Virus record (IMG/VR): IMGVR_UViG_3300031087_000514
Direction: 5' to 3' (one strand)
DNA: 64,000 bases
From: a virus
Taxonomy: Duplodnaviria; Heunggongvirae; Uroviricota; Caudoviricetes
Position numbers and translations under genes: made by a program. This document shows, one piece after another, positions 511 to 60,046 of this stretch. Position 1 is the first letter of the stretch. Each line of letters opens with the position of its first letter. The notes beneath the pieces were generated by a model. That model was not told the DNA's origin and did not search any database. It saw only the letters and a list, made by a program, of their open reading frames with translations.

Positions 511-601
511 GTAAAAAAGAAGCGAAGCAGTACTTGAAAATCACTGCTTTGGATGTCATCCGCCCGAAGGACTGAAACTGCTGAGTTGTTAGATATAGAG
601 T

Positions 602-1630
602 ATGTCTACTGCTACTGTTACGAAATGCTCTAAGCCTAAGGGAGCTTATTGTCGTTTGCATAACCCTGAGCCAAAAGGATATCAGTCAGCTGAGCAGGCT
701 TTGCAGAAGGCGGAGCAAGATTTTCATAAAACACATCCTGGTATTTCCTTTCAGAAGACCGATGAAACTCGTCATTTACCTGAGGGTGTTCCTGAGAAGA
801 TCGCTGACCATATTGCGTTGAGCAACAAGCAGTTAGCTCATTTAAGCGATGAGCAGAAGAAAGCTTTGAATGGTTATACTGGTTTTGCCGCTGGTGTGTG
901 CAATAGTATTCTCATTTCAAACGAATTCTCTTATGAATACTATGATGAAGCTCCATTATGGAAAGAAGCTCCTGGTGGAGCGTGTGACTTTGTTTCTCGT
1001 GAAGACTTAGTTGACTATATGGAAACAATTGACACTATCCTTGCTCCTCGTCAAACAGAACAACGAGTCGTATACCGAGGCATCCCAATTTATTCATCTC
1101 TTCATGATGAGATTGGCGCAAAGATTGGTAAGAAGCTCGCTTTTTCTGATGAAGAAGGGTTGATGGAAGGACTGAAAGCCTATTACAAGCCTGGTACTGT
1201 TATCAAAAACGAGACCTATTTATCTACGACTCATTCTGCTTTCTACGCTGCTGATAGGGCAGGTAATGAAACTGATACTAAAAATGATTTTTACCAGAGA
1301 AAGAAAGTTCCTCTGGGTATTATGTTTGAGCTAAAAACGAACGCTGGGTTAGATGTTACAGGAGCTGCCCGACATAATGCTTATGAACGCGAAGTCGTGT
1401 TACCTCGTGAAACATACTTCAAGGTTGTGAGCGTAGAAGTAAAGCCTGCGAAGTATGATACAGTTTCAGGCTTCGATCACATCAATGACCCTAATGACCG
1501 TGAGGCGGAGACTTTTACAAACCTTGCTGCTGTTGTGCAGATGGTGGAAGTTGACAAGAACGGTAAAGAGATTCACTCGACCCGTCCTCATCATCCAGAA
1601 CGTCAGATTCGTGACATTATCCCTGAGTAA
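602..1630 (+). CDS. ADP-ribosyltransferase, R-S-E class (Alt/Mod-like), with N-terminal C-x7-C-x2-H motif
   Basis: Arg (VVYRGIP), STT (YLSTTHS) and ExE (YEREVVLPRE) ART triad; N-term MSTATVTKCSKPKGAYCRLHNP; GTTAG box at 588-601. Confidence 0.7.
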   Translation: MSTATVTKCSKPKGAYCRLHNPEPKGYQSAEQALQKAEQDFHKTHPGISFQKTDETRHLPEGVPEKIADHIALSNKQLAHLSDEQKKALNGYTGFAAGVCNSILISNEFSYEYYDEAPLWKEAPGGACDFVSREDLVDYMETIDTILAPRQTEQRVVYRGIPIYSSLHDEIGAKIGKKLAFSDEEGLMEGLKAYYKPGTVIKNETYLSTTHSAFYAADRAGNETDTKNDFYQRKKVPLGIMFELKTNAGLDVTGAARHNAYEREVVLPRETYFKVVSVEVKPAKYDTVSGFDHINDPNDREAETFTNLAAVVQMVEVDKNGKEIHSTRPHHPERQIRDIIPE

Positions 1631-1660
1631 TAGCTGAGTGCCATTTGTTAGGGATACAGT

Positions 1661-2692
1661 ATGACTTCCGCTGCTGATTCTCAATGCTCTAAAGCTCCTG
1701 GTGAACATTGTCGTTTACATAATCCTGCATTTCCAGGAGGTTTTCAGCCGTTTAATCAAACGAGAAAACTGGCAGGCAATGTTCCATATCGTTTGGTGGA
1801 GCACGCTAAGGAAAATAGAGAACGGGCCAAGCATTCGCTCAATGAAAATGAAAGAATTGCAGTAAGTCATTACCCGCATGGCTCTACGGGTAACTTCATA
1901 TCAAAGCTATTACGTAACCCTAATATGGACGTTACTTACCAAAATGAGCGTCCTTCATGGTTAGTCGAACATAGAAGCGTTGAAGCTTTCAATTCCAGAG
2001 AAGAGTTAGTAAGTTATATAGAAACAATGGACACAGCTTTATCTCAACGCACAGAGAATAATCGTATTGTATATAGAGGAATTGATTTTGAATCGGTACG
2101 AGAGCAAATCATAGCAGAGTATGGTAATCCTATTACTGATAACAAACAAGAATGGGATAAAGCTGTTAGCAACTTTTATCACAAAGATAGACTGTTCGCT
2201 TTTTCTAATTACACATCAACAACCTTAGCTCCTACTTATGCCGCTGGATGGATGCCTCCCGGAGAAGATAATAAATCTTATCGTGGAGTTGTTTTTGAAC
2301 TGAGTACTAATGCAGGTCTTGATATTACAGGGCTTGGAGAAAACAGTAGCTATGCACATGAGCGAGAAGTGTTACTTCCTCGTGACGTTTATTTCAAAGT
2401 AGCCAATGTGCAAATAGCTCCTCCGAAATACGATACCCGAGCAGGTATAGAAACTATGCATGAATTAGGGGCCGAATTACAAGAGCATAAGCCTTTTTGG
2501 GGAGATATCGCTGCTGTCATTCAAATGGTAGAAGTTGATAAGCATGGTAACCAGCTCACTCCTGAGGCAAGAGTTCAAAAACACGTTCCTGAAAGAACCT
2601 CTGAGCAGTCTGTTCCTGTTGAGAAACCAGCATCTTCAGAGATTTTCTTCAAAGAATGGCTAAAAGGCTTGAAAAAGCGAAAAAATAAATAA
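1661..2692 (+). CDS. ADP-ribosyltransferase paralog (tandem duplicate of 602..1630)
   Basis: IVYRGID, YTSTTLAP, HEREVLLPRDVYFKV motifs; N-term CSKAPGEHCRLHNP; GTTAG box 1647-1660. Confidence 0.7.
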   Translation: MTSAADSQCSKAPGEHCRLHNPAFPGGFQPFNQTRKLAGNVPYRLVEHAKENRERAKHSLNENERIAVSHYPHGSTGNFISKLLRNPNMDVTYQNERPSWLVEHRSVEAFNSREELVSYIETMDTALSQRTENNRIVYRGIDFESVREQIIAEYGNPITDNKQEWDKAVSNFYHKDRLFAFSNYTSTTLAPTYAAGWMPPGEDNKSYRGVVFELSTNAGLDITGLGENSSYAHEREVLLPRDVYFKVANVQIAPPKYDTRAGIETMHELGAELQEHKPFWGDIAAVIQMVEVDKHGNQLTPEARVQKHVPERTSEQSVPVEKPASSEIFFKEWLKGLKKRKNK

Positions 2693-2702
2693 TGAAAACA
2701 AA

Positions 2703-2748
2703 ATAAGGGGCGAGACTCGAATGAAGTCTCGCCCCTTATTTTGTTTTT
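2703..2748. terminator. bidirectional rho-independent terminator
   Basis: 13-bp GC-rich stem aaggggcgagact/agtctcgcccctt followed by ttattttgttttt. Confidence 0.8.
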
Positions 2749-2974
2749 AGCTTCGTATTTTCCGCTTGTTGGCTTTGTCTACAAGCTTGTTGTATTCAAC
2801 GACTTGTAATAACGCTGCGCGGAGAGCGTCTTCCAGGAATGCGCCGTCCTGGTTGCGGTAGTCTGTGGTGACTGTGATGTGCTCACCATTCACAGTGAAA
2901 CGAATGAAGTTCGCCTCTGGACGCTGTGAAGCGGGAGCGGTCTTGCCGAGATGGAGTGTTACGTTTTTTGACAT
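2747..2974 (-). CDS. hypothetical protein (75 aa)
   Basis: ORF between two terminators/intergenic regions; no motif. Confidence 0.45.
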   Translation of the reverse strand: MSKNVTLHLGKTAPASQRPEANFIRFTVNGEHITVTTDYRNQDGAFLEDALRAALLQVVEYNKLVDKANKRKIRS

Positions 2975-3179
2975 GGTTATCCTTTCAGTTGGTGGTAATT
3001 GACTGAAAAGATAAATTTGTTATCACATGTCGTTTATTGTAGCACTTTCTGTAAGGACTCGTCAAGAGTCATCCAAAAGTATCGGCAAGAATTCTTAAAC
3101 TTAGTACAGTGTAAGCTTTCTCTCCTGAAAAAGATTCTTGCGATACGATAGATAAAGTACACGTCAAAGGAGAACTGAC

Positions 3180-3449
3180 ATGACTTATCAAGGATTACAT
3201 AACGCCGAAGCATACGAACGTGCAAAAGAAGCTGAGGAGAATGCCGCTCGAGATGCTTTAATTGCAGCTGCTCGTAGTGAACTGACGTGGGAACCGATTT
3301 CGCTGGAACAGTTTTTGTTCAGAGTGGCAAAGCATGCGCAGGTTGATTTACTTGCTGCGAAACGAGCTTTATCGTACCTGAGAAGCTACAATGAGGCTGA
3401 CTACGTGTTCGGTGTTGGAGTGACCAAGAAAGTCCGTCAGAATGGCTGA
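3180..3449 (+). CDS. hypothetical protein
   Basis: ORF with AAAGGAG RBS 8 nt upstream. Confidence 0.5.
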   Translation: MTYQGLHNAEAYERAKEAEENAARDALIAAARSELTWEPISLEQFLFRVAKHAQVDLLAAKRALSYLRSYNEADYVFGVGVTKKVRQNG

Positions 3450-4035
3450 GAGCAAAAAGGTAAAAATTCCTACTGCTGGGTATTCATCTGAACTGATTCC
3501 TAAAATCTTCTTAGTTTTCTCTGCTGTGCTTCTTCTTATCGCAGCATCTATAGGGCACCCTTTTGACCTTGGCTGGACTATTGTTGCTGCTCTGAACTTC
3601 GCTTTGCAAGCAGGGATGCTCATTTGGACATTGTTTTTCAAGTCCACACTTACTGTTGAAGTCGTTGACGGTAAACCTGTTGCGGTGCGGGAGAAGAAAC
3701 AGCGGATTCTTTTGTCAGAGGTTACGAACATTCAATGGAAGAAGATTGGTCGTTCTTTCCAATTACATCTTACTAAACCTGGTTCAGATGATGAGATGAC
3801 AAGTAAAGCAGTTATCTATTTGAGTGGTGAATCAGGTGCACATTTGGTTCGCAAGAATAAGCTTTCGTTACTGAGTGAAACAATGCAAGCTACATCAGCT
3901 CCTCGTTCTGGCATTGAATATAAGCATGAGAAGCCAGCGTATTTCTTCCCTGACCAGGCTGATTATCAGTGGGGACAGACAGCTTCTCTTGGAGCAAATG
4001 AAGCGATAACCGAGCTGGGTCGGTACGTCAAATAG
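3442..4035 (+). CDS. membrane protein (2 TM + soluble PH-like C-terminal domain)
   Basis: Start overlaps the previous stop; two hydrophobic helices near the N-terminus. Confidence 0.5.
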   Translation: MAESKKVKIPTAGYSSELIPKIFLVFSAVLLLIAASIGHPFDLGWTIVAALNFALQAGMLIWTLFFKSTLTVEVVDGKPVAVREKKQRILLSEVTNIQWKKIGRSFQLHLTKPGSDDEMTSKAVIYLSGESGAHLVRKNKLSLLSETMQATSAPRSGIEYKHEKPAYFFPDQADYQWGQTASLGANEAITELGRYVK

Positions 4036-4065
4036 TCAGAACTTTTGGGTTCTCTGATAGAATAG

Positions 4066-4479
4066 ATGATTATGATAGATTTCAAAGACATCAATGTAGG
4101 CGATAAGATTGAACTGGTGTTCAATAATGGAGACCGTATTAGTGGCGAAGTCACAGTGCGAGTAATTTCAGATACTATGCGCTTACAGACATTATTCGGT
4201 GGTGACACGTTCATCTCTGTTCGTGAAGTTAAAGAAATCAATGTTCTGACTCCTCGGGTGAATAAGGAACCTTTTGAGCCAGAAGGCGAAGGCTACATTT
4301 GGGGATACGTAGACTTAGGAAATGTTCGCCATGCCGTCTACCGTTCTCCTGATAAATGGTGGAGCTACAAAGGCAAGATGGGTTCATGGGAGCGTCTGTA
4401 TGACAAGGTAACGGATGACAACTACGATAAGCCGTTTACTTTTGTTCGTCTGATTGAAGCTGAACCTGACACTGAATAA
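4066..4479 (+). CDS. hypothetical protein
   Basis: ORF, terminator immediately downstream. Confidence 0.5.
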   Translation: MIMIDFKDINVGDKIELVFNNGDRISGEVTVRVISDTMRLQTLFGGDTFISVREVKEINVLTPRVNKEPFEPEGEGYIWGYVDLGNVRHAVYRSPDKWWSYKGKMGSWERLYDKVTDDNYDKPFTFVRLIEAEPDTE

Positions 4480-4492
4480 GTTATGTCGATGA

Positions 4493-4538
4493 AGCGCTTA
4501 ATCCAGCAGCTTGTTGGATTAAGCGCTTTTCTCTTTTC
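4493..4538. terminator. rho-independent terminator
   Basis: 14-bp stem aagcgcttaatcca/tggattaagcgctt followed by ttctcttttct. Confidence 0.8.
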
Positions 4539-4601
4539 TGAGGTGTTTCACAGAACATTGCTATGGTTTATATACGTACAAAAACAAGTTAGGGGAAAAC
4601 C

Positions 4602-5543
4602 TTGGTAGGTTTTATCATCTTCGCTATCCTCGCAGTCGTTGCGGTGGTTGTGTGGCTTAGATCAGCAAAGAAAAGCAACAAGCTTCAAACACGTGTCTCA
4701 GGTGGTGTCGCAGCAGCCTTAGGATTAACAGCATTCGGTATCCTGTTTGCTCATAGCGCATACACACAGGACCCAGGTGAGGCTGTTGTTCAGCGTGACA
4801 CTATTACAGGTAAGATTGTTGGTCAGACCGTTACAGAAGGTTTGTACTTCAAAGCTCCTTGGGTTGACACAGTGATGTTCAACATCCGTAATCAGAAAGT
4901 TTCCTTCGCTGGTAACGCTCAGTCTGGTTATGCTGACAATACTGGTGGAGCTGCTGACGGTTCACAGATTACTGTTCAGGACGCTGATGGTGTTTCTTCT
5001 AACATTGATATCACTTTACGTTACTCTATCAAGGGTGACTCTGTAACTGAGATTTACCGTCAGTTCAAAGATGAGGAGAACTTCAAGAACTCTTTCATCA
5101 CGCAGGACATCCGTTCAGTGGTACGTAACGTCCCAACGAAGTTCAGCACTCTTGACTTGATTACTCAACGTGGCAAGATTGAGAAGCAGATTCTTGATTC
5201 CTTGGAAGACCGTTGGAAGAAAGAGGGAGTTGTCATTGACTCCATCAGCTTGCAGGAAATCCGTGTCCCTGACAGCGTTCGTGAAGCATATGCGAAAGCA
5301 CAGGAAGCTCAAATCAACGTTGAGAAAGAACGCTCTAACCTTGAAGCAGCGGAAGTCTCCGCCCAGCAGAAAGTTGCTAACGCAACAGCTGAAGCGAAAG
5401 CTAACAAGATTCTAGCCGCTTCCTTATCTGACCCTGTTTTGAAGCAGCGATACCTTGACGCTCTTTCCGAACTTGGTAAAGACGGTAATGTCGTGGTTGT
5501 TCCTGAAGGATTCAACGGAATGTTGAACCTTAACAAGAAGTAA
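4602..5543 (+). CDS. SPFH/band-7 (prohibitin/HflC-like) membrane protein
   Basis: N-terminal TM helix, SPFH-like core, C-terminal coiled-coil Ala/Glu/Lys-rich region; TTG start with AGGGG RBS and GTTAG box at 4588-4601. Confidence 0.6.
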   Translation: MVGFIIFAILAVVAVVVWLRSAKKSNKLQTRVSGGVAAALGLTAFGILFAHSAYTQDPGEAVVQRDTITGKIVGQTVTEGLYFKAPWVDTVMFNIRNQKVSFAGNAQSGYADNTGGAADGSQITVQDADGVSSNIDITLRYSIKGDSVTEIYRQFKDEENFKNSFITQDIRSVVRNVPTKFSTLDLITQRGKIEKQILDSLEDRWKKEGVVIDSISLQEIRVPDSVREAYAKAQEAQINVEKERSNLEAAEVSAQQKVANATAEAKANKILAASLSDPVLKQRYLDALSELGKDGNVVVVPEGFNGMLNLNKK

Positions 5544-5556
5544 GTAAAACGTTATA

Positions 5557-5600
5557 GAAAATGGCAGAACCTGTAAATTCAGGTTCTGCCATTTTCTATA
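5557..5600. terminator. bidirectional terminator
   Basis: 18-bp stem agaaaatggcagaacctg/caggttctgccattttct. Confidence 0.8.
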
Positions 5601-5613
5601 AACTGTATCGTTA

Positions 5614-6194
5614 TCAACGTCTACGTGGTGTACGCCGAGTTCTTCTCCGAGACTTCACTCTGGTTGACTCAGCGGCGAAGGCTCTCCATGCGAAGTATTT
5701 CATCATAGTAGGAGGGAACGGTTCAGGGTTTGGATTTGACCGGCATTTCTTCACAACAGTAATAACGCCATTATCGTACTCCCAAAGCCCACATCCCTCA
5801 GGTATTTCTTCAGGAGTGAGCAAACCTTTCGGAGTTAAGTACACAAATCTGTTCACAACAGATTTCCATGCTCGTCTTTTATCTTCGGTATCACGCCGAA
5901 AATCCGCTTTGGAAACTTTCATTTCAATAGCAGTGATAGCTTGACCTTCAAACATGAGGAAGTCAATTCGTCGTGTGAGTTTCGCATCCTGCCAGTTGTA
6001 TCCATCAGGAACCTCAGCATCGTAATCAAGCCCTGACTTGTCATAAATGCGCTTCATTCGTGGGTTACTCAACGCATGGGCAGCTCGGGAAAGTCTTTCA
6101 GCATGTAAATCAGGCATTGTTACTTCTGTAAGAATAGCTGCTTTGTTATGTTTCGCGCGAAGTGCTGCGTAGAAAATCTCTTCTTGTTCTCTCA
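5614..6194 (-). CDS. putative PD-(D/E)xK-family nuclease-like protein (MmcB-like)
   Basis: D...E-x-K pattern (IDFLMFEGQAITAIEMKVSKADF); Arg-rich C-terminal tail; start chosen at ATG (MREQEE) downstream of the terminator of the preceding gene. Confidence 0.4.
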
Positions 6195-6198
6195 TTAA

Positions 6199-6243
6199 CC
6201 TAAAAATCCCGATAGTTGCGTATACTCTCAACTATCGGGATTT
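6199..6243 (-). terminator. rho-independent terminator for minus-strand gene 6257..6883
   Basis: 15-bp stem aaatcccgatagttg/caactatcgggattt; U-run on minus strand (plus taaaaa). Confidence 0.7.
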
Positions 6244-6256
6244 AGGCTGCCTGTGA

Positions 6257-6883
6257 TTAGGCGTTGTAAATCTTGTCGTATTCTTTCTCAATGATGTTCT
6301 GGTGCTCAAACTCATCGTATCCGCGTTCTTCCCAAGCCTGCTTGACATCCTCAGCAGTGATGGTCTCTTTCTGTGGGAGAAGATGTCCGAAGCAGTAATC
6401 AAGTCCACCGTCTTCATCGTTTGAGGTGAGTTCGTCAAACTTCTCACCGTAATGCCATGCTCCATCCGTGTACCAAAGAACTAAGCTCGTCGCAAAGACG
6501 TTAGTCCCGTCAGGGAGTTCAACATTCAAGCCCCAGTAATTCTCTTCCTGGTTAGTAGCAAAACGAAGCAAATGCTCAGGGGTTCCTTCATACAGCGCTT
6601 CCTGCTGAGGAGCCTCCTCATCAGTGCCGTAGAAGTTTGTTGAGACTTCGTGGTCATAAACAAGAACCAAAGCGTCATCGTCAACAAAGAACATCTGCAA
6701 TGTCTGCCCGCCACCGTCATCCCAGTGAGCAACAGTAGCGCCTTCAACAGTAGTGAACAGCTCATCAAAGCTGTATGAGCTACCAACTTGGCTGTCAATA
6801 GCGGCTGTCAGTTCAGCTCGCTTTTTCAGTTCAGCTGGAGCTGGAAGGGTTTCAAGAAACTTTGCAATTTTTGTCTCAGTCAT
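6257..6883 (-). CDS. hypothetical acidic protein
   Basis: ORF with AGGAG RBS on minus strand. Confidence 0.55.
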   Translation of the reverse strand: MTETKIAKFLETLPAPAELKKRAELTAAIDSQVGSSYSFDELFTTVEGATVAHWDDGGGQTLQMFFVDDDALVLVYDHEVSTNFYGTDEEAPQQEALYEGTPEHLLRFATNQEENYWGLNVELPDGTNVFATSLVLWYTDGAWHYGEKFDELTSNDEDGGLDYCFGHLLPQKETITAEDVKQAWEERGYDEFEHQNIIEKEYDKIYNA

Positions 6884-6939
6884 GTTGCTCCTATCGGATG
6901 TTTTTCGGTATGTCTATAAAGCTATGGTATCATACTTAC

Positions 6940-7215
6940 ATGAGATTCTTACTCCCACTTATTTTCGTTATCGTTGTAGCATTCCTGGCTTGGGCTGCTT
7001 TCAATTTCATTCGTGGTTCTTCATCTGGTTCAGGTGGGAACAGAGGTGCAGGCGGTTCGGATGGAGGAACCTACACGAATAACTTTACCAGTGATTCCTC
7101 AGACAACCATCACAGCGGCCATTACGGAAGCTCTGGCGGTGGTGACTTCGGCGGAGGAGATTCAGGCGGTGGAGACTCTGGTGGGGGCGACGGTGGTGGC
7201 GGAGGAGGCGACTAA
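6940..7215 (+). CDS. small membrane protein with Gly/Asp-rich repetitive tail
   Basis: MRFLLPLIFVIVVAFLAWAAF TM helix then (GGGD/S) repeats; start uncertain (6862/6910/6940 in frame). Confidence 0.45.
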   Translation: MRFLLPLIFVIVVAFLAWAAFNFIRGSSSGSGGNRGAGGSDGGTYTNNFTSDSSDNHHSGHYGSSGGGDFGGGDSGGGDSGGGDGGGGGGD

Positions 7216-7229
7216 GCTTCTCACCATTA

Positions 7230-7282
7230 AATAGTTGAAGGCGGTAACAGCGTGATGTTGTTACCGCCTTCAACTATTTAAT
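7230..7282. terminator. bidirectional terminator
   Basis: 20-bp stem aatagttgaaggcggtaaca/tgttaccgccttcaactatt. Confidence 0.75.
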
Positions 7283-7742
7283 ACTCAGTGCGAGTTGTGC
7301 TTTCTTTCCACACATTGAAAGGACTTACAGCATTTTCAATTCTCAGATGCTCAGCAACATCTCCAGCTGCAAGCTTCTCGTAGAACGCTGCGTCATCAAA
7401 GCCAGCATCAGCTGCATCATGGCGGTCAGCAGCGAACACAATGCGGTCAACACGTGACCACAATGCAGCGCCTAAGCACATGGGACATGGCTCACAGGAA
7501 GAGTACAGAATGCATCCTTCCAGACTAAACGTTTCCAACTGACGGCATGCTTCACGAATAGTATTCACTTCTGCATGCGCAGTCGGGTCATTCGTTGTCG
7601 TAACCGAATTACCGCAAGCGATTACTTTGCCAGACGGAGTGACAATAACTGCTCCGAACGGCCCACCATTACCTGAATAGACGTTATCCATTGCGATACG
7701 AATAGCAAGCTGGATGTAGTAACCATCGTAGTCGTCATTCAT
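7278..7742 (-). CDS. CDA-fold nucleoside/nucleotide deaminase (TadA/guanine deaminase-like)
   Basis: HAE ... PCxMC zinc-binding motifs; start ATG overlaps the ligase stop as ATGAATGA (alternative in-frame ATG at 7766). Confidence 0.65.
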   Translation of the reverse strand: MNDDYDGYYIQLAIRIAMDNVYSGNGGPFGAVIVTPSGKVIACGNSVTTTNDPTAHAEVNTIREACRQLETFSLEGCILYSSCEPCPMCLGAALWSRVDRIVFAADRHDAADAGFDDAAFYEKLAAGDVAEHLRIENAVSPFNVWKESTTRTEY

Positions 7743-8865
7743 TGTCATCACTCTCCACTTTGCCATTCAGGTTCCAGAAAGGCTTTTCAAACTCGGGCTG
7801 GATAAGCTTCCAGATGCTGTCAGAAATCTTCTTCTCAGAAGACTCATTGTAGTGACCACCGCTATGACGGCTGAACAGCATACCTACAAGCTTCTTATCC
7901 TGCTGCTGCACTGCAAAAGCATAGTCCTTCTGAGTGAAGTCATCAGGAAGAGAAGTAATTACGCTGTTATACGTGTTCTCTACTTCCTCACGCAGAGCAG
8001 CGAACTCTGCCAGAAGGTTGTCACGGGTGCGCTCAACGAAGTCAATGAACTCCTCAGGAAGGTCCTTCAACCAGCTGTCAAAGTCGTTACCACTGACAAG
8101 CATCTCCCAGATACGACGTGAAGATGCGCCAGTGATGATGCGATGAAGCTGAACGTAGTCGGCCTGCTTAATCTTCACACGAGTGTCAGTGTTCAGGAAG
8201 TGCACAACCAGACCCTCAGCGTTCTCACGCGGAGTTGCAGCAAGCGCCTCAGCAAGGTTCGTGTACTGGAACTGCTCAACCTTGTTCCACTTCCACTCAT
8301 CAATCTGAGATGCAGGCTCGCTGATACCAGTCTCAATGTTTACACGGGCAATCAGGATAAGGTCATCCATCTCACCATAGTTCAGCACAATACGGTTGGT
8401 CGGGTAGATAATCTCCCAAATGTACGTGTAGCCCTCAGCAGGCTCCCACTGACCGTCATACAGCTCCAAGTAACGCGCTGTTGCATGCTGAGCCTGCTCA
8501 GAAGCAAAGGAACCACGAGTGGAGATGTTCAGCGTGCCATCAGGAGTGCGGTAAGAGATACCCATGCTACCGTCAGCCTTATCGGAGACAACAGCAGGGC
8601 CAGTCAGAAGAGCCTGGTCAACATCAGGCTCGTTGTGGTTGAAGAACTTACCCAGAGGACGGGAAACAATTTCCTTTGTCTCAGCGTCAACAATAAGACC
8701 ACGTGCTGCCAAAGTTGCAGGGTTCCAAGCGCGCTCAAACTGAGCGACCTGTGAGTAGTCGTAAATCTCCAACGGCAGAGTAGGGTGTACCTGCTTATTG
8801 ATGTGCTTTGCTGCGAATGCTGCATCCCACATTTCCTTTGGAGCAATGTCATAGATAGTTGACAT
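7735..8865 (-). CDS. RNA ligase (nucleotidyltransferase superfamily)
   Basis: Motif I KADGS, downstream EGhVhK-like motifs; paralog of 18503..19741. Confidence 0.7.
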   Translation of the reverse strand: MSTIYDIAPKEMWDAAFAAKHINKQVHPTLPLEIYDYSQVAQFERAWNPATLAARGLIVDAETKEIVSRPLGKFFNHNEPDVDQALLTGPAVVSDKADGSMGISYRTPDGTLNISTRGSFASEQAQHATARYLELYDGQWEPAEGYTYIWEIIYPTNRIVLNYGEMDDLILIARVNIETGISEPASQIDEWKWNKVEQFQYTNLAEALAATPRENAEGLVVHFLNTDTRVKIKQADYVQLHRIITGASSRRIWEMLVSGNDFDSWLKDLPEEFIDFVERTRDNLLAEFAALREEVENTYNSVITSLPDDFTQKDYAFAVQQQDKKLVGMLFSRHSGGHYNESSEKKISDSIWKLIQPEFEKPFWNLNGKVESDDNE

Positions 8866-8959
8866 GAAATAGTGTCTTTCTGTGTTTCTTCAATGGATCA
8901 ATTCGTACTGATAATAGCAGATATAAGCATCTTCGTCAACTGGTAGGAGGTCTTTCCTG

Positions 8960-9046
8960 CTTTGACAATGCCTGAACTGATATACTTTAGTAGCAGTAGT
9001 GATGTGACAATATTGTCACATTGGCCTCATGCAACAATATTGTCAC
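8960..9046. promoter_or_regulatory. divergent intergenic region with repeated palindromic operator-like sites
   Basis: Perfect 16-bp palindrome GTGACAATATTGTCAC at 9004-9019, second copy gcaACAATATTGTCAC at 9032-9046, half-site TTGACAATG at 8962-8970. Confidence 0.4.
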
Positions 9047-9070
9047 TTGCAACCTATTGGAAAGGCTATC

Positions 9071-9562
9071 ATGTCCTTAGCAGAAGATGAACGAACACAA
9101 CGATCCCGCGAAGCTGCCAGAGAGCGTTCTCGAGCGAAATCGATAAAGTTTGCAAAGATGAATGCAGAGGCTCGTCGTCTTTCGCAGGAAATGCCAGAAG
9201 AAGGATTGCCTCTCAGTATTTGGGCAGAAGAAATCAAACGGCGTTCAGGAGAACACGAGTACATTCTTCACATCCTTCATAATCTTGAAGGGGAAGTTCA
9301 TTACTCTTTGTCTAATGTTACAAGACTTCCAGGCTTGCAAAGCGCAGACCCTCAGTATCTTTCAGAATACACGCCTTACTCCATCCCTGAGAGTGTTGAA
9401 CTTGACGAAGAAGTACTACGCCAGTACAATAAGTGGTCAATACTGAATACTCAGCGTGCATATGCTACACAAGCTTACATCCAGTCACAGCTTGATTCAG
9501 GAAACGAGATTCTCGTACGTAAGCCTGACGGAACAGTCGAAGTAGTTCGGTTTTCCTCATGA
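9071..9562 (+). CDS. hypothetical protein
   Basis: GGAAAGG RBS; Arg/Glu-rich N-terminus. Confidence 0.5.
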   Translation: MSLAEDERTQRSREAARERSRAKSIKFAKMNAEARRLSQEMPEEGLPLSIWAEEIKRRSGEHEYILHILHNLEGEVHYSLSNVTRLPGLQSADPQYLSEYTPYSIPESVELDEEVLRQYNKWSILNTQRAYATQAYIQSQLDSGNEILVRKPDGTVEVVRFSS

Positions 9563-11930: not shown

Positions 11931-11955
11931 TCTATAAATCCGTTATCATGAAGCC

Positions 11956-12390
11956 ATGGCTGATCTAACCACGTCGAAATATTCTCGTTTTGTCCTCCCT
12001 GCTGTCGCTGAGAACATTGAGAAGCTTCTGAATCTTCGGTTTACTGATGAAGACGAGGATGAGTATTCTCTCGCTGATATGGCTGACCCGGTGAAAGCAT
12101 CAGGGCATTGCTACGATTCAGCATTGCTAGTCCAGCAATCAGGTCTTGTATTTAACGATGGTCCTACTGGCGAGATTCTGAGGGTCATTCCTGAGGGAGA
12201 AAATGACCCTGACGGTTGGTGGCATGCAGCGTTCTCTGTGCCAGACCATATCGGGGAGGACATTGTGTATGATTTCACTATGCGTCAGTTCCATCCTGAC
12301 CTCCCGTTCCCCTATGTAGGGTTCGCTGACCAGTGGGCTAGCACTATTGAAAAATACGCAGGTCATGGCCCTGTTGAGTTTCTTTGGTAG
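11956..12390 (+). CDS. hypothetical protein
   Basis: ORF 144 aa. Confidence 0.5.
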   Translation: MADLTTSKYSRFVLPAVAENIEKLLNLRFTDEDEDEYSLADMADPVKASGHCYDSALLVQQSGLVFNDGPTGEILRVIPEGENDPDGWWHAAFSVPDHIGEDIVYDFTMRQFHPDLPFPYVGFADQWASTIEKYAGHGPVEFLW

Positions 12391-12888: not shown

Positions 12889-12908
12889 TAATCCGATAGA
12901 ATTCTCTC

Positions 12909-13433
12909 ATGAGCAACAAATTAGTTATCGCCTGTGATGGTTCGTGTTTGAAGAACCCCGGCGGTGAAATTGGATGGGCTTGGGCTGACAATAAAGGTCG
13001 TTGGCAATCTAACGGTGCAGCCACTGGTTCTAACCAGAAAGCTGAGCTGTTAGGTTTACTGTCAGTCTTCTATGCTTTCCCAAATACTAGCATGCATATC
13101 CAACTGGATTCTCAGTATGTGTTGAATATCGCAACCAAATGGATGTTCACATGGAAGAAAAACGGTTGGTATCGTGATGCTGAGAAAACGCAGGTTGTGA
13201 GTAATCTCAACTATGTCCAAGCTATCTATGAGGCGCTTCGTGTTCGGAAGCAGAAGAAGCTTGTCACTACGTTTGAATGGGTAAAAGGCCACGCCTCAAA
13301 CGGTTTGAATAACATAGCTGACAAGGAAGCCCAGGCTGCTGCTCGTCGCATAAAAGCCAGTAAACCAGGGTATGCGGACTCTGCAAAGAACACTTCCTCA
13401 GAACGCCAAAACAGAATGCTTGAATCCTTGTGA
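12909..13433 (+). CDS. rnhA: ribonuclease HI
   Basis: ACDGSC, AEL, KGH..N..AD RNase H catalytic motifs. Confidence 0.8.
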   Translation: MSNKLVIACDGSCLKNPGGEIGWAWADNKGRWQSNGAATGSNQKAELLGLLSVFYAFPNTSMHIQLDSQYVLNIATKWMFTWKKNGWYRDAEKTQVVSNLNYVQAIYEALRVRKQKKLVTTFEWVKGHASNGLNNIADKEAQAAARRIKASKPGYADSAKNTSSERQNRMLESL

Positions 13434-14227: not shown

Positions 14228-14272
14228 AAATATGGTAGGCTTACTCGTTCAACTTACCTTTGTATTGGAATC

Positions 14273-14968: not shown

Positions 14969-14969
14969 A

Positions 14970-15461
14970 TTACATCGTATTGTCAGGATTCTTCAAATCT
15001 TGAGGAGCTACCTTGTATGCATACTCGCTGTTCGCTGATAGGTAGTAGACATACTCTACGTTTTTGTCTTTCGGATCAGTGACAAGAATGTAATGCCTGC
15101 GAGCATCCACATCAAGGTAGCCTGCGGTATCCATGATTTCTTTAGCCTCAGTGTCAGTAAGATTCAGGTATTCATAATGCTTGTGGAACCAGTTCAGATA
15201 GTTGTTCTGAACAGCTTCCACCCGCATCTGAGGCTGCACGAAAGCAATTTGCGTGAAGCTAACAACTGCACCAACAACTAAAAGGGCGGCTCCACCAAAA
15301 GAAATCAGTGCAGGGATACGACGAAACGCAGGTAGAGCTAACCCGAGAATGAGCAGAGCCAGTGGAATGGCGAAAAGCCAGTAGTTGAAATCCTCTAAAC
15401 CTGTCGGATTGGATGGTACATGCCAACCATTGAGGTCAGAGAGTTTGATTTCGTTGTTCAT
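14970..15461 (-). CDS. membrane protein
   Basis: Two TM helices; internal ATG (MNNEIK) chosen because the upstream start would overlap the divergent pnk start codon. Confidence 0.45.
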   Translation of the reverse strand: MNNEIKLSDLNGWHVPSNPTGLEDFNYWLFAIPLALLILGLALPAFRRIPALISFGGAALLVVGAVVSFTQIAFVQPQMRVEAVQNNYLNWFHKHYEYLNLTDTEAKEIMDTAGYLDVDARRHYILVTDPKDKNVEYVYYLSANSEYAYKVAPQDLKNPDNTM

Positions 15462-23335: not shown

Positions 23336-23352
23336 TACGATAGAACTTACTT

Positions 23353-42177: not shown

Positions 42178-42197
42178 CAACTCGTTAGTAATAGTGT

Positions 42198-44769: not shown

Positions 44770-44897
44770 TAGTATGCACCTTAGAAATTTTGTAAGGTGA
44801 CAGAAATACTTTGACCGTGTACGTGGATGTGCTTTTTCTTCACATCTTTTTACCTTGTAGTTATTATTCTAACATGAATAGTGAAGAGAAATGTAAT

Positions 44898-47644: not shown

Positions 47645-47715
47645 AGCATGTCTTCACTATACTTGACAACTCCAATAACTCTGTGGTATAGTGAAGACAT
47701 GCTGAATGTTTGACA
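47645..47715. terminator. 18-bp inverted repeat (terminator-like, long loop)
   Basis: cagcatgtcttcactata / tatagtgaagacatgctg. Confidence 0.5.
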
Positions 47716-47732: not shown

Positions 47733-48265
47733 ACCTCTCCATATAAGAGATGGTTCACTCGCAAACCCTGCGTTGAGGTACCCTCCGCCAGCTCATTGAC
47801 GAAAGTCACAGTTTGCTGGGTGAAGCTATCCCGTTGTTTAACGACAAGTATGCAGATGTCTTAGATGGAATTTTCAGAAAGCAGAAATATCAGAAAGCAA
47901 CAGCATTCTTTGAGTTCTATGGGGAGAACAGCTTCGCAGGATTCCATGAAGATGAGCCTCACGATGTGACACTTTTCGATGTACATATTTATAAGCACGG
48001 TCTGATGTCACCTCAGGAGTTCAACAAGGTCTTCAAGCATGTTGACACCGCGCCCTTACTTTTTCAAGGGAAGCCAACTGCTGAGTTTGTTGAATCTGTT
48101 CAGGAAGGCACCTTAGAAGGCATGACCTTTGAGGGTGTTGTCTGCAAAGCAGGTTATGATAATCGGAACAAGTTAGCTTCATTCAAAATCAAGAATAAAG
48201 CTTGGTTAACTCGCTTGAAAGATAAGTGTGGGAATGATGAGAAAATGTTCACCGCGTTAGCATAA
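47733..48265 (+). pseudogene. decayed nucleotidyltransferase ligase: out-of-frame motif I remnant (IRDGSL, 47733-47753) plus ORF carrying motifs IIIa/IV/V (TLFDVHI, EGVVCK, KIKNKAW)
   Basis: No in-frame start or lysine nucleophile; TTG-only ORF 47813-48265. Confidence 0.4.
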
Positions 48266-48278
48266 AGTTGCTGTGTGA

Positions 48279-48322
48279 AAAGAACCTCTTAGCTCTGGCT
48301 AAGAGGTTCTTTTCTTCTTTTA
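48279..48322 (+). terminator. rho-independent terminator
   Basis: Stem aaagaacctcttagc/ctaagaggttcttt followed by tcttctttt. Confidence 0.8.
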
Positions 48323-48364
48323 CTACTGATAGTATATAGATGGGACATAGAAGAAGGAAACCCA

Positions 48365-49804
48365 ATGTGTAGAAATAAAGAAGAAGGCGGTCGCCGCTGT
48401 ACCGATCACAATGCATTCGGACAGCAGATCAGAAACCTTCAAGCGAAAAAGCAGTATCATGCAAAATATGGTCACACTGACAAAGTAACTTCAGTTGTTG
48501 AAGAAATGGATGCTCTTCGTGACAAGAAGCAGCATCTTTTAGAAGATGGAGGAACTGTTCTTCCATACACGATGCCATTGACCCCGAATGCGGAAAGAGT
48601 CCTCAACCAGCTCCGTGAAGACGGGTATGAGCCTTATGTTGTTGGAGGAAGTGTTCGTGACGCTCTTCTCGGATTAGACTCCAAGGATGTTGACATTGAA
48701 GTCTACAAAGCTACACCAGAAGAAGTCATTGCTTCCCTTCGTAAAATTGGTCAAGTGGATGAAGTGGGTAAATCATTTGGTGTCTTGAAAATCCAAATTG
48801 GGGGAGAAGACTTTGATGTCTCTCTTCCTCGTAAAGACTCTAAAATTGGTGACGGACACAGAGGGTTCACTGTTGAAGTAACTCCTGAACTCTCACTCCA
48901 TGAAGCAACTGCTCGTCGCGATTTCACCATCAATGCTCTCATGTATGACAACGAAATGGGATTCATCGTTGACAAGCACGGTGGTTTGAAAGATTTGGAG
49001 AAAGGTCATCTCCGTCATGTTTCAGAAGCTTTTGATGAGGACCCGCTCCGTGTTCTTCGTGGAGTACAGATGGCTTCACGTTTTGATATGGAACTCCACC
49101 CAGACACAGTAGTCAAAGCTCAAACACTGAAAGACCAGTTCGGTGATTTGGCTCGAGAGCGCGTCCAAACTGAATTCCAGAAGCTGTACCAGAAAGGTAA
49201 AGCTCCTCACAAAGCGTTCAAGCTTTTGCAGGATACAGGTTGGGACGCAAACTTCTCTGGTGTTGCAGAAGTGAATGGAAAATCTCTGCGTCGTAATCTG
49301 CAAAGAACTCAGGAGTTGACTGACCAAGGAGTCATTCCTAAGGAGAAAGGTGCATACATCCTTTCAGCGAACATTGCATCTCATCTGAATGATAAAGATG
49401 CAAGAAACTTCTTGACATACACTACTGTTGGTGATGATTTGAAGAACAAGTCATACAACCTTTCTCGTGTTGAGCTACCAGTGAAGCAAGGAAAAGCTTC
49501 TTTGCGAGCATGGGCAAGAGGCATGCCTCGCCACGTCACCATTCAAGACTGGGTTCTACTCAGTAAAGCCAAAGGTGACAAGGAAGTAGCAGAGCGTATT
49601 GAACGCAAAGCAGAAAAACTTGGCATTTTGCACAGTCCTGAATCTGACATGGTATCAGGAGATGATGTACTTGCTGCTTTCCCTGAACGTAAACCAGGTC
49701 GTTGGATGAAAGAAGCCTTAGATGCAACGCGTAACGCTCAGTACTCTGACGTGTTCCGTGACCGCGAAAAAGGTATTGCCTGGGTCAAAGCAAACATTAG
49801 CTGA
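48365..49804 (+). CDS. cca: tRNA nucleotidyltransferase (CCA-adding enzyme) with about 60-aa N-terminal C-x9-C-x2-H extension
   Basis: VVGGSVRDALLGLDSKDVDIEV head motif; N-term MCRNKEEGGRRCTDHN; AGAAGGAAA RBS. Confidence 0.8.
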   Translation: MCRNKEEGGRRCTDHNAFGQQIRNLQAKKQYHAKYGHTDKVTSVVEEMDALRDKKQHLLEDGGTVLPYTMPLTPNAERVLNQLREDGYEPYVVGGSVRDALLGLDSKDVDIEVYKATPEEVIASLRKIGQVDEVGKSFGVLKIQIGGEDFDVSLPRKDSKIGDGHRGFTVEVTPELSLHEATARRDFTINALMYDNEMGFIVDKHGGLKDLEKGHLRHVSEAFDEDPLRVLRGVQMASRFDMELHPDTVVKAQTLKDQFGDLARERVQTEFQKLYQKGKAPHKAFKLLQDTGWDANFSGVAEVNGKSLRRNLQRTQELTDQGVIPKEKGAYILSANIASHLNDKDARNFLTYTTVGDDLKNKSYNLSRVELPVKQGKASLRAWARGMPRHVTIQDWVLLSKAKGDKEVAERIERKAEKLGILHSPESDMVSGDDVLAAFPERKPGRWMKEALDATRNAQYSDVFRDREKGIAWVKANIS

Positions 49805-50378: not shown

Positions 50379-50395
50379 TCCGTTAGATATAATGC

Positions 50396-54624: not shown

Positions 54625-54701
54625 AGCATTTTCTGTAAAAGGACCAAAGTACACGCTTTACTTGATAGCTATAAAGCAAGCTAAACCCAGAAGGAAAATA
54701 C

Positions 54702-57749: not shown

Positions 57750-58379
57750 TTAGCGTAGGGTGGTTTCCAACGCTGACACAGAGTTCAGGTATTCTTCAAC
57801 ATCGGAGAACAAACCATCTGTGAACGCTGCGGAAACCATCCTTGCTTGTAATTGCAGCCCCATCTCGTCACCTGAAAGCTTTTTTGCTAACCCTGTCAGA
57901 GTGTAATCCTCTTTTGAAGGCACGCCCAAGTTGTGGATCAATTCTACTGCTGCTTGAATCTGTTTTTCATTGAGAGCTTTATCCTCTGACAGGGTTTTGT
58001 GCATCCATGAGGTGACATCAGCTTTCAATACGGCGTTTTGCTCGATGTAGTCTTCTTCTGTGGTAAGAAGCCAAGAGAAGCTACCTTCATTCTTCCACTC
58101 ATTGAGATTATGCTGGACTCCGATTGTATCAAGTCGCTCAATGAGTTCCGCTCCTGCAATGATGACAACATCGTTGATTGTTCCTGCTGGCTCAACCTCA
58201 GGCTGCCAAACGTACAGGTCTTCGCCTGGTTGCAATTCAGCTACTTCCCCGTTGTCGCCTTTGTAGATTGTTGTTCCATCTTCTTCTTTGTAGAAGGGTA
58301 CTGCGGTAACGAACGTGCCTACATTTGCAACTTGATTTGGAACGAACCCGTAAAGTGGGCGAGTGGTTGTATCTGTCAT
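57750..58379 (-). CDS. hypothetical protein
   Basis: ORF 209 aa convergent with and abutting the 1015-aa gene. Confidence 0.5.
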   Translation of the reverse strand: MTDTTTRPLYGFVPNQVANVGTFVTAVPFYKEEDGTTIYKGDNGEVAELQPGEDLYVWQPEVEPAGTINDVVIIAGAELIERLDTIGVQHNLNEWKNEGSFSWLLTTEEDYIEQNAVLKADVTSWMHKTLSEDKALNEKQIQAAVELIHNLGVPSKEDYTLTGLAKKLSGDEMGLQLQARMVSAAFTDGLFSDVEEYLNSVSALETTLR

Positions 58380-58546
58380 GAGAGAAGACTACCAAACTGT
58401 TGATGTTTAGAGGATTTTGAGAACTTTAATTATTTTTCGTCAATTTGACTGAAAAACTTGCCGATACTCTTTAAGAGTGATACACTAAGAACATAACGAA
58501 CGGGGTTACTTGAACGCCCGAGAAAAACAACAAGGAGCAAAAATTA

Positions 58547-59169
58547 TGTGGTACATCATCCACACCAATTATGACCTCACCGAAGGTCGCGGCTGGGAAA
58601 TTCCCACCACTATTACTCAGGACCGTAACGTCGCCCTCTGGTACGCTCACACCTATCGCCCATTCTACGGCCAGGTGCAGGGCATCCACACTGTACATGG
58701 TGCCGACAAGCTGACTTATGACCGTGAGCATGAATTCTTGAAGACCTACCCTCGTGGTGAAATTGTTGACCCTGAGTTGAACGCTCAGTGGAAGCAGTAC
58801 GAAAAGACTTTCACTGACCAGGGCAGGAAGTTGCCTGAACCTCCCATGAACCCTCAGACAGTGTATGTCGTCGGTTACGTAACGGACCCAGGTATTGGTG
58901 GGACAGTCATTCGGAACCAGTTCATGCCTGCCCAGTTCTTCACGGATTATAACGAAGCACAGCAGGCAGCTATTGCAGGCGCTGACGCAGGTAATAAAAT
59001 CTGGAACATCATTGCGTTGGAAACAGACACCTACTGTGGGACTCGTGCTATGGCGAAGGAACGTATCTTCACCTACCCTGTTCCGAAGCCTGCTATTGTT
59101 GAAACTGAACAGATTCAGCAGTATGATATTGATGAATTGACAGACCTGTTCACAGTAGGGGCGAAGTGA
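58547..59169 (+). CDS. hypothetical protein
   Basis: AAGGAG RBS before MWYIIHTNYD. Confidence 0.5.
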
Positions 59170-59170
59170 C

Positions 59171-59374
59171 ATGGCAAACAATAACGAATTCACAGTTGAG
59201 AATCTGCAACGGATTATCAACTTGATGAATCACGGAAAAACTGACTTGACAGGTGTGTCGGAAATGAACATCAAGTTCGCTCCGAATGTTTCAGGGCGAA
59301 TTGTCGCTAAGAATGATGACACATTTGTTTTCGTTCCCAACAGTCACCAAGACATTGACCAATTCGGTCGCTAA
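59171..59374 (+). CDS. hypothetical small protein
   Basis: ORF 67 aa. Confidence 0.4.
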   Translation: MANNNEFTVENLQRIINLMNHGKTDLTGVSEMNIKFAPNVSGRIVAKNDDTFVFVPNSHQDIDQFGR

Positions 59375-59390
59375 GATTTAGGAGAATATC

Positions 59391-59978
59391 ATGACAAAGG
59401 GTTTGCTTATCGTTGACGTGCAGAACGATTTTATTGAAGGGGGTAGCCTGGCAGTCGCAGGAGGCGAGAAAGTCGCTCTAACGCTCGCAGAGCACCTCCT
59501 GGATGCTGATTACCATGCGCTCATCACCACTCAGGACTGGCACATTGAGCCTGGAAACCATTGGGCAGAAACTCCCGACTATGTGGACACCTGGCCTGTG
59601 CATTGCGCTGCAAACACTGCTGGTGCATCGGTACGCCCTGAGCTGGCGGCTGCCATTGTTTCCAAGGTCAGCGAACAGCGAAGCCTTCGGTATTTGCGCA
59701 TTGTCAAGGGTGAGTATGAAGCAGCTTACTCAGGTTTTGAAGGCCGCGACTTCCTTGGAGGGAATGAGAAGGTTCCTACCCTTATCCGTGAGCTTGGTGT
59801 AGATGAGCTGGACATTGTAGGACTGGCAACAGACCATTGTGTTCGCGCTACTGTTCTGGACGCTCTGAAAGCGGGATTCAAGGTAAACGTCCTCACCGAC
59901 TACGTTGCAGGTGTCGACCCTGAGCGCTCCAAAGCAGCTCTTGCTGAAATGGAAACAGCAGGCGCAACTCTCGTCTAA
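59391..59978 (+). CDS. pncA: nicotinamidase PncA (isochorismatase family)
   Basis: LLIVDVQNDF, K, ATDHCV catalytic D-K-C triad context; TAGGAG RBS. Confidence 0.75.
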   Translation: MTKGLLIVDVQNDFIEGGSLAVAGGEKVALTLAEHLLDADYHALITTQDWHIEPGNHWAETPDYVDTWPVHCAANTAGASVRPELAAAIVSKVSEQRSLRYLRIVKGEYEAAYSGFEGRDFLGGNEKVPTLIRELGVDELDIVGLATDHCVRATVLDALKAGFKVNVLTDYVAGVDPERSKAALAEMETAGATLV

Positions 59979-59989
59979 ATCAAGATAAC

Positions 59990-60035
59990 GAAGAAGCTGA
60001 CTGGTATGAAATACGCCAGTCAGCTTCTTCGCGTT
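59990..60035 (+). terminator. hairpin terminator
   Basis: 15-bp stem gaagaagctgactgg/ccagtcagcttcttc. Confidence 0.55.
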
Positions 60036-60046
60036 AGGAATGAATT

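Follow-up and report, generated by a model that had tools for sequence, protein, structure and literature searches.

Here we examine a 64,000-nt stretch of viral DNA (Caudoviricetes; IMG/VR record IMGVR_UViG_3300031087_000514), hereafter the window, in which the pentamer GTTAG stands exactly 14 nt before the start codon of a subset of genes. We interpret this box, with a probability of roughly 0.7, as the −10 region of a promoter whose position makes the ATG itself the start of transcription, giving a leaderless mRNA; of the readings compared, this one is the best supported. A first-pass annotation of the same letters had proposed an operator of translation initiation or of RNA processing, or else a promoter-proximal element, defining a co-regulated gene class; the promoter element is favoured and the co-regulated class supported, and neither the translational nor the RNA-processing operator is supported. 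With the box as a −10 region, RNA polymerase would start at the A of the ATG, give or take one base, the box genes would be transcribed as leaderless mRNAs, and ribosomes would load directly on the 5′-terminal AUG with no Shine-Dalgarno (SD) sequence. Two classes of box are distinguished below: a canonical class (class 1), YGnTAnnnT, which would be read by the sigma-A polymerase of a presumed actinobacterial host, and the GTTAG class (class 2), which may be under separate control through a phage-encoded or phage-modified specificity factor.

A box at a fixed distance from the start codon

The arrangement GTTAG-N9-ATG occurs 12 times in the window, both strands counted, against 1.57 expected from 100 shuffles (standard deviation 1.23, maximum 6), none of which reached 12; the excess over chance claimed in the first pass is borne out. 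Eight of the 12 matches are true ATG starts of long open reading frames (ORFs), at 602, 1661, 34754, 36808, 41340 (minus strand), 42198, 50396 and 60047, and the other four (23041, 28454, 55306 on the minus strand, and 60670), about the number expected by chance, are intragenic and out of frame or antisense. The pentamer as such is not over-represented (109 copies on both strands versus ~125 expected), so the signal is purely positional.

Every sequence quoted in the first pass was recovered at its stated position; offsets here take the A of the ATG as +1. Eight class-2 boxes directly abut an ATG, on the plus strand unless noted. Those at 588–601 (GTTAGATATAGAGT) and 1647–1660 (GTTAGGGATACAGT) precede ADP-ribosyltransferase genes starting at 602 (602–1630) and 1661, both of which encode an N-terminal Cys motif, the Cys tag; a third ADP-ribosyltransferase gene, at 34754, follows the box at 34740–34753 (GTTAGATATAGAAC), and the PNKP gene at 36808 follows that at 36794–36807 (GTTAGAGATGGTAC). 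On the minus strand, GTTAGAAATAGAAC (41341–41354) precedes the gene at 41340 for a 493-aa Cys-tag protein of phrog_2319. The remaining three lead Cys-tag genes: an HD-domain protein at 42198 (GTTAGTAATAGTGT, 42184–42197), a GNAT acetyltransferase at 50396 (GTTAGATATAATGC, 50382–50395) and a GNAT-like protein at 60047 (GTTAGGAATGAATT, 60033–60046). Seven box genes of the window share the N-terminal Cys motif, and the reported enrichment on the Cys-tag family holds, with a class-2 box at −14 in seven of the nine genes that encode the motif.

Two of these sites adjoin inverted repeats. The box of 34754 lies within a 26-nt inverted repeat (34710–34764; 92% complementary, 3-nt loop) that mirrors the box, the ATG and the first 11 coding bases, so that the minus strand reads GATAAATATAGAAC-ATG followed by a 5-codon ORF; possible roles of this repeat are those of a bidirectional promoter, of an operator, or of a hairpin concealing the AUG when transcripts read through from upstream. 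A perfect 16-bp hairpin (59989–60031) ends 2 nt before the class-2 box of 60047.

The first-pass list of nine to ten box genes survives for the eight ATG genes and, as a credible variant, for the T4-type RNA ligase 1 (Rnl1) gene at 18503, whose box carries one extra base (GTTAGATATATCAGC, 18488–18502) and whose orthologue in a relative, L092, has TTGTTAGGTATAGTCT-ATG at the exact −14 offset. The SPFH gene at 4602 (GTTAGGGGAAAACC, 4588–4601) is doubtful: the pentamer is at −14, but the start is TTG and the box contains an SD-like AGGGGA. The gene at 16890, listed with GTTGG and N10, drops out, since GTTGGAGA supplies an SD sequence, GGAGA, at −12 to −8 and a promoter-like box, TGATACAAT (16836–16844), lies 52 nt 5′ of the start; the GTTGG variant is not needed to explain it.

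The first-pass annotation caught part of the signal: the GTTAG genes belong to a wider set of 16–18 genes with G-N-T-A at the same offset. Among ~75 window genes, G-N-T-A occupies −14 to −11 in 16, other offsets averaging 1.5 genes (maximum 4), and two start corrections raise the count to 18. TA at −12/−11 is found in 20 of the 75 (about five at other offsets) and G.TAG at −14 in 12. Where a G.TA-N10-ATG site has a long ORF downstream, it lies at the 5′ end of that ORF in 18 of 20 cases.

The same offset recurs in relatives. A search of IMG/VR with the PNKP protein gave no close relatives; PNKP homologues with 42–74% identity were present on other contigs of 0.3–1.0 Mb, and seven such loci, obtained from a protein-database search and their contigs, were compared with the window. 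GNTA stands at −14 in 6/29 genes of L007, 4/20 of L008, 7/29 of L009, 4/25 of L010, 7/27 of L091, 10/24 of L092 and 3/31 of L093, and at other offsets in an average of 0.6–0.9 genes.

Promoter-like features of the box

Box genes of the window and relatives were pooled (n = 37 or n = 57, depending on the count; orthologous and hence non-independent sites included). Position −15 is T in 19/37 and C in 13/37 (TGn or CGn), G−14, T−12 and A−11 being fixed by selection of the sites; −9 is mostly A, and T is found at −7 in about half (29/57). The base at −1 is a pyrimidine in 53/57 box genes versus 87/142 other ATG genes (p = 2.6e-6), and 36/37 box genes start with ATG and hence have A at +1. A pyrimidine at −1 and a purine at +1 form the usual signature of a transcription start site. 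SD-like motifs precede only 4/37 box genes versus 50/92 others (p = 3e-6), as the first pass had noticed for its smaller set. The box itself does not look like an SD-type ribosome-binding site, with a GGAGG core 5–10 nt 5′ of the start: GTTAG and ATAG have no complementarity to the canonical anti-SD sequence, from which the host 16S rRNA may differ.

An unlikely alternative is that the box works in the mRNA, as a non-SD ribosome-recruitment site or as the operator of a phage translational regulator within a short 5′ untranslated region, for which the T4 RegA targets would be an analogue. The fixed distance to the ATG, the missing SD sequence and the bias towards ATG starts would all suit such an element, as would the absence from class 2 of the T−7 expected in a −10 hexamer. 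The SAS elements of mycobacteriophages are likewise short, lie near the mostly ATG starts of non-structural genes and contain GATAG (PMC3203893, PMC12699233).

One point against an mRNA element is the occurrence of the box at a distance, in front of genes that do have an SD sequence. In the sense orientation 25/27 such matches lie 26–53 nt from the ATG, class-2-like copies and two Cys-tag genes among them, a spacing that argues against an element acting on the ribosome beside the AUG. The two Cys-tag genes, 48365 and 54702, had been reported to lack the −14 box and to share AGAAGGAAA instead, both of which we confirm; beyond the shared AGAAGGAAA, each has a GATAG box ~36–38 nt 5′ of its ATG. 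That of 48365 (poly(A)/CCA polymerase family) is tGATAGTATATAG (48328–48341), 36–37 nt from the start and preceded by a terminator-like hairpin (48277–48314), and the L007 orthologue has cCGATAGGTATAAG at equal distance; that of 54702 (amidoligase) is the class-2-like tGATAGCTATAAAG (54664–54677). Other distal copies are cGATATAAT (27456–27463), ~42 nt 5′ of the SD-led NAD synthase gene 27499, whose L007 orthologue has cGATATACT; tGTTAGAAT (44866–44873, minus strand), ~103 nt 5′ of an MFS transporter gene starting at 44769; and, before SD-led genes of L093, CGTTAGATATTA twice and TGTTAGATATTT once. The extended −10 pattern YG-n-TA and the pyrimidine at −1 are not predicted by a ribosome-binding element either, and one member, the 195-aa gene at 33837, has a full consensus promoter (33802–33836): a perfect TTGACA stands 17 bp 5′ of TGcTACTAT (box TGCTACTAT), which ends 6 nt before the ATG. 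Finally, the SAS consensus is absent from gene starts in the window (see below), and no RegA-like or other RNA-binding regulator was found there.

As far as the DNA itself can tell, the marks of a leaderless promoter are present: TAnnnT in class 1, an extended −10 with no enriched −35, Y(−1)/A(+1), and an ATG without an SD sequence. Other promoter assignments fit less well. Judged by eye, no consistent GGAA lies at the distance that an ECF-type promoter (GGAA-N17-GTT) needs. A different register of the hexamer, TATAGA at −8 to −3, was rejected because it would shift the start of transcription to ~5 nt within the ORF, at the cost of the conserved N-terminal Cys motif. The in-frame TAGs also raised stop-codon recoding as a candidate, which we set aside with code 11 giving 92.5% coding density.

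Two classes of box

In the pool of 57, position −7 is T in 29 sites and A in 26, and the A−7 sites differ elsewhere too: A−7 covaries with T−13 (20/26 versus 4/29 of T−7 sites, p = 2.5e-6), with G−10 (22/26 versus 10/29, p = 3e-4) and with T−6 (22/26 versus 9/29, p = 1e-4). The class-2 consensus is Y-G-T-T-A-G-R-N-A-T-R-(G)-N-N-Y-ATG, in which A−7/T−6 replace the canonical T−7, and the TAnnnT of class 1 sits at the same offset. GTTAG sites are a statistically discrete second class, and a co-regulated class is supported.

Of the −10 positions that matter for sigma-70-type recognition, T at −7 normally ranks among the top two. That this base gives way to a conserved substitute pattern in class 2 suggests a different or modified specificity factor, and thus a temporal class. 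We consider it an open bet, at a little under even odds, that class 2 is a separately controlled promoter class, marking a temporal regulon and dependent on a specificity factor that the phage encodes or modifies; otherwise it would be a host-type −10 in a weak variant. A more specific proposal is more tentative still: class 2, whose consensus ends 4 nt before the ATG, might be the complete promoter for a specificity factor encoded or modified by the phage (either a new sigma, or a protein like gp55, or an RNA polymerase of the phage) and not for the host housekeeping sigma, and might switch on, in a clade of actinobacterial phages of 0.5–1 Mb, a conserved leaderless regulon of Cys-tagged effectors and RNA-repair enzymes, the effectors being ADP-ribosyltransferases, GNATs, the HD protein, a nucleotidyltransferase and an amidoligase.

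Beyond the non-independence of the pooled sites, several observations weigh against a leaderless promoter. Class 2 has T−12 and A−11 and lacks T−7, so that it conforms only in part to TAnnnT and should be poorly read by a standard sigma-70-type holoenzyme; within the 64-kb window of a genome of 880 kb, neither a sigma factor nor an RNA polymerase subunit or activator turned up. In neither class do the best matches to TTGACA at 16–18 bp exceed the background. The excess of distal matches in the sense orientation is modest (27 versus 15 antisense, p = 0.09). Over the first 36 nt of the coding region, box and non-box genes show no difference in folding energy, GC and G content, and no transcript-like contig starts near the ATG among the 10 listed places of the 15 PNKP-carrying contigs. 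The 45% GC of the element, far below that of the Microbacteriaceae, counts against a typical high-GC host (see below). A generic sigma-70 promoter scan of the window found no overall enrichment (36 versus 29.8).

Conservation of the box in relatives

Box and class are retained by orthologous genes. For PNKP the box is at exactly −14 in 7/8 genomes (the window and six of the seven relatives), as class 2 or its GATAG and GTTAT variants, even where protein identity falls to 47%; the intergenic DNA around it varies in sequence and in length from genome to genome. The HD gene has class 2 in all three genomes in which it was compared (the window; GTTAGAGATAGATT in L007; GATAGACATACAGT in L008), at a constant offset from the ATG and with spacers to the upstream gene of 20, 32 and 34 nt, respectively. 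Class 2 precedes Rnl1 in the window and in L092, with a GTTAA variant in L010, and the counterparts of the GNAT and 493-aa genes also retain the box. For the latter, the candidate is a 499-aa L008 protein with an N-terminal Cys in the same neighbourhood (box GTTAGGAACACTCT); neighbourhood, size and Cys make it a probable, putative counterpart of the phrog_2319 protein. Class-2 boxes also stand on Cys-tag genes of the relatives (L007 20462, L008 14236–15735, L009 4566–5147), and class identity is inherited with the gene across genomes.

Orthologues do replace the pentamer, by GATAG, GTTAT or GTTAA, with T−12 and A−11 constant, which fits a −10 element and not a sequence-specific RNase site. We therefore regard as very improbable the proposal that GUUAG is where a phage or host endoribonuclease trims transcripts just 5′ of the AUG, activating or inactivating a class of genes. 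Analogues exist in T4 RegB, which cuts at GGAG, and in MazF, which generates leaderless mRNAs, and the fixed distance of the pentamer from the AUG and the many RNA-repair genes of the window would accord with such a site. GTTAG is, however, neither avoided nor enriched elsewhere in coding RNA, by the counts given above, and the canonical TAnnnT class occupies the identical offset. No nuclease candidate was identified in the window. As for a box with no function of its own, a relic of duplicated paralogue 5′ ends or a by-product of ORF calling at the in-frame stop TAG at −12, the adjacent paralogues 602 and 1661 do share CTGAGT upstream, the Cys motif is common to seven box genes and TAG at −12, often also at −6, is in frame with the ATG, but this idea is scarcely credible and appears largely refuted by the orthologues, which at 47–74% protein identity keep the offset while spacer length and sequence change; the box moreover precedes unrelated genes (PNKP, Rnl1, HD, GNAT, ADP-ribosyltransferase, RNase H, DUF4126, GyrB), the sequences 5′ of it are unrelated outside 602/1661, −6 to −4 is not always a stop (TAC, TGG and TTC occur), and an in-frame stop leaves G−14, Y−15, Y−1 and the absence of an SD sequence unexplained.

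Among near-identical strains (98.4–99.3% identity) box positions vary at 2/133 sites versus 2.9% of intergenic positions, which is too little power to gauge constraint. These strains differ in two genes of the window. A 291-aa minus-strand ORF (35730–36605) is intact in L003, L004, L096, L098 and L099, and in L001 and the window-identical L002 the region reads as 129 aa plus a plus-strand ORF of 128 or 130 aa; the RNA ligase gene 47813–48265 encodes 150 aa in the window strain versus 202 aa in other near-identical strains. In the more distant L091, whose clade has the longest contigs, a tandem array of ~19 paralogous genes of 144–173 aa (300–9130, minus strand) was observed. Seven L091 genes, six of them in the array, have a (C/T)TG-G/C-TAGAAT-type box exactly 6 nt 5′ of the ATG, and many genes of the array appear to have their own leaderless promoter.

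Other box sites in the window

Class-1 boxes followed by N6-ATG precede a further set of genes: cCGTTATCAT (11942–11955; gene 11956–12390), cCGATAGAAT (12895–12908; RNase H, 12909–13433), aCGATAGAAC (23339–23352; DUF4126 membrane protein, 23353–23946), TGATATAGT (26615–26628; gene 26629–27405) and TGATACACT (28780–28793; gene 28794–29582) on the plus strand, and TGGTATACT (38201–38214; a 98-aa gene starting at 38200) and TGGTAGTCT (58380–58393; gene 57750–58379) on the minus strand. The starts at 33837 and 38200 (minus) were missed by simple ORF calling and are used by the gene caller of the collection. A candidate member, TGGTATCAT (6926–6939), likewise with N6-ATG, precedes a 91-aa membrane or Gly-Ser-rich ORF (6940–7215). 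The box aCGATAAAGA-N6-ATG (61212–61225), ahead of the GyrB/topoisomerase II subunit gene (61226–63331), has A at −7 and so is not a canonical hexamer.

A box-ATG pair does not always mark a gene start: at 47663–47701 a perfect TTGACA-18-TGGTATAGT promoter is followed, after 6 nt, by an ATG that opens a 4-codon ORF only. It probably drives the RNA ligase gene 47813, with a leader. The 340 nt between the GNAT-like gene and GyrB (60887–61225) contain no credible ORF and several box-like sites (cCGATAGGAATA at 60894, GTTAGAGATA at 61071, TGAGTATACT at ~61140 and cCGATAGCTG at 61157); a small RNA gene or a stack of promoters may lie here.

Genome, gene content and host

The window agrees letter for letter with a stretch of an 880,603-bp contig (ENA ERZ27247428, k141_538707; L002), and a second sample yielded one of 878,479 bp (L095). 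Contigs of the PNKP relatives measure 782, 725, 696, 688 and 510 kb, and the longest contig of one cluster 1,000,729 bp. For comparison, a January 2025 preprint called a genome of 841,704 bp the largest phage genome known (10.1101/2025.01.14.633092). By its gene content the 880-kb element is phage-like, putatively a huge phage. The window encodes chaperones (Hsp70 [DnaK] and ClpB), proteins of DNA function (a GyrB-like topoisomerase subunit, RNase H, NucS, a deaminase and a DNA methyltransferase) and three ADP-ribosyltransferases as effector-like enzymes; no tRNAs or Rfam families were found in it. It also holds a dense RNA-repair set of two T4-type RNA ligases 1, two PNKPs, an RNA ligase of PF09414 and a CCA/poly(A) polymerase (7735–8865 on the minus strand, 15553–16455, 18503–19741, 36808–37851, 47813–48265 and 48365–49804), together with two NAD synthases (20077, 27499) and an NMNAT-like gene (21824).

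The Cys motif, C-x6-9-C-x2-H (or C-x-D-P-R-C) within the first 25 residues, occurs in nine window proteins, encoded at 602, 1661, 34754, 42198, 50396, 60047, 41340 (minus), 48365 and 54702. Their catalytic domains are unrelated: three ADP-ribosyltransferases, an HD protein, two GNATs, a poly(A)/CCA polymerase, an amidoligase and the phrog_2319 protein. Rnl1 (18503) has a similar N-terminal C-x4-H-C. The tag resembles a zinc-knuckle common to these proteins and may serve in targeting or packaging.

The host is suggested to be an actinobacterium by the ranking of DnaK matches and two marker genes. The best 80 GTDB matches of DnaK are all Actinomycetota, mostly Microbacteriaceae, at 70–74% identity; a NucS/EndoMS mismatch endonuclease gene lies at 14273–14968 of the window, and relative L093 has an MMPL transporter gene (12933–15146). 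NucS and MMPL are typical of Actinobacteria. L093 also has an IF1-like gene (PF01176, 4731–4952), and a phage IF1 could bear on leaderless translation.

Implications

For annotation, GNTA at −14 offers a simple rule for correcting start codons and predicting leaderless genes in an uncultured clade whose genomes of 0.3–1.0 Mb rank among the largest phage-like genomes on record, and in which about a quarter of the genes appear to bypass SD initiation. The box and the affinities of DnaK and NucS point to actinobacterial hosts; in the literature on phages above 500 kb, as far as we found, an identified host is named only for the LAK phages. The GTTAG subtype further provides a sequence handle on a probable temporal regulon that joins Cys-tagged effector-like enzymes with RNA repair, making the transcription programme of these phages directly testable.

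Comparison with known systems

Several phage and bacterial promoters resemble the box in part. The SPO1 late promoter (sigma gp33/gp34) has CGTTAGA-N17-19-GATATT (PMC3601020), both half-sites of which occur in cGTTAGATAT. This is a resemblance only, and an SPO1-type architecture was rejected: the half-sites overlap in one 10-bp block and are not 17–19 bp apart, and no GATATT-like hexamer lies 17–19 bp downstream of the box, a position that falls within the coding region. A sigma-28 (FliA/WhiG) promoter, with TAAA ~15 bp 5′ of GCCGATAA, was likewise discarded for want of the bipartite arrangement; CCGATA is moderately enriched in the window (21 versus 12.7 expected), and TAAA-N13-17-CCGATA occurs once (0.23 expected).

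The T4 late promoter, TATAAATA, spans −13 to −6 from the start site (PMC1524935). Read with gp55, gp33 and gp45, it is like the box an 8-bp, −35-independent, −10-like element, of which the class-2 sequence TAGANATA fits 6–7 of the eight positions; an exact TATAAATA occurs once, in the low-GC relative L010 (gtTATAAATA-N4-ATG). T4 late genes include that of the packaged ADP-ribosyltransferase Alt. Class 2 differs in that its TA(G)ANATA lies at −12 to −5 from the A of the ATG, a one-base shift, and T4 late mRNAs are leadered, unlike those proposed here. No gp55, gp33 or gp45 was found in Pfam and PHROGs scans of ~70 window ORFs, which were the extent of that search.

The SAS element of Cluster K mycobacteriophages (GGGATAGGAGCCC, 13 bp, with up to 2 mismatches) has an AGGAG SD core at a variable 3–7 bp from the start, and its function is still unexplained (PMC3203893, PMC12699233). 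Like the box, it is a short, asymmetric, one-orientation motif containing GATAG before mostly ATG starts in a non-structural subset of actinobacteriophage genes, and it is conserved across subclusters as the box is across relatives; the SD core and variable distance set it apart from a box with no SD sequence and a fixed offset. In the window the SAS consensus has five matches at ≤3 mismatches versus 6.7 expected, none of them at a gene start. Thermus phage phiYS40, most of whose middle and late mRNAs are leaderless according to a report that cites Sevostyanova et al. 2007 (PMC3594737), is on that account similar as a large phage with leaderless mRNAs in a host lineage that tolerates leaderless translation; the host lineage differs, no sign of IF2 or IF3 manipulation was obtained for the present element, and here leaderless mRNAs are predicted from sequence.

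The closest counterparts are cellular. In Deinococcus, experiments showed that TANNNT 6–7 bp 5′ of ORFs drives leaderless mRNA in the Deinococcota, with a dispensable −35 (PMC12340547); in Corynebacterium glutamicum, transcription start-site mapping found 33% leaderless mRNAs, with a TAnnnT −10, a weak −35 and an extended −10 (PMC3890552); and start-site mapping likewise revealed an extensive leaderless transcriptome in Mycobacterium tuberculosis (PMC3898074). The leaderless promoters of Actinobacteria and Deinococcota share with the box TAnnnT 6–7 bp 5′ of the start, a weak or absent −35 and frequent TGn (PMC12340547, PMC3890552, PMC3898074, PMC3160421), as well as their presence in a quarter to a third of genes, a split between −10-type and GGAG-type motifs, and the AUG bias. 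Class 1 fits this layout fully. The differences are that those systems were described in cells and the box belongs to a phage-like genome (0.88 Mb, 45% GC) and its relatives; that CG is nearly as frequent here as TG at −15/−14; and that class 2 has A−7/T−6 in place of T−7, plus conserved T−13, G−10, A−5 and G−4, features of which we found no mention in the leaderless-promoter literature cited. A −10 motif abutting the ORF is already described as a common mode of expression in Actinobacteria and Deinococcota; the general mechanism is established there, and the present finding is a refinement of known biology, not a departure from it. The new variant is a discrete GTTAG subtype that marks a conserved set of Cys-tag effector-like and RNA-repair genes in Mb-scale phage-like genomes.

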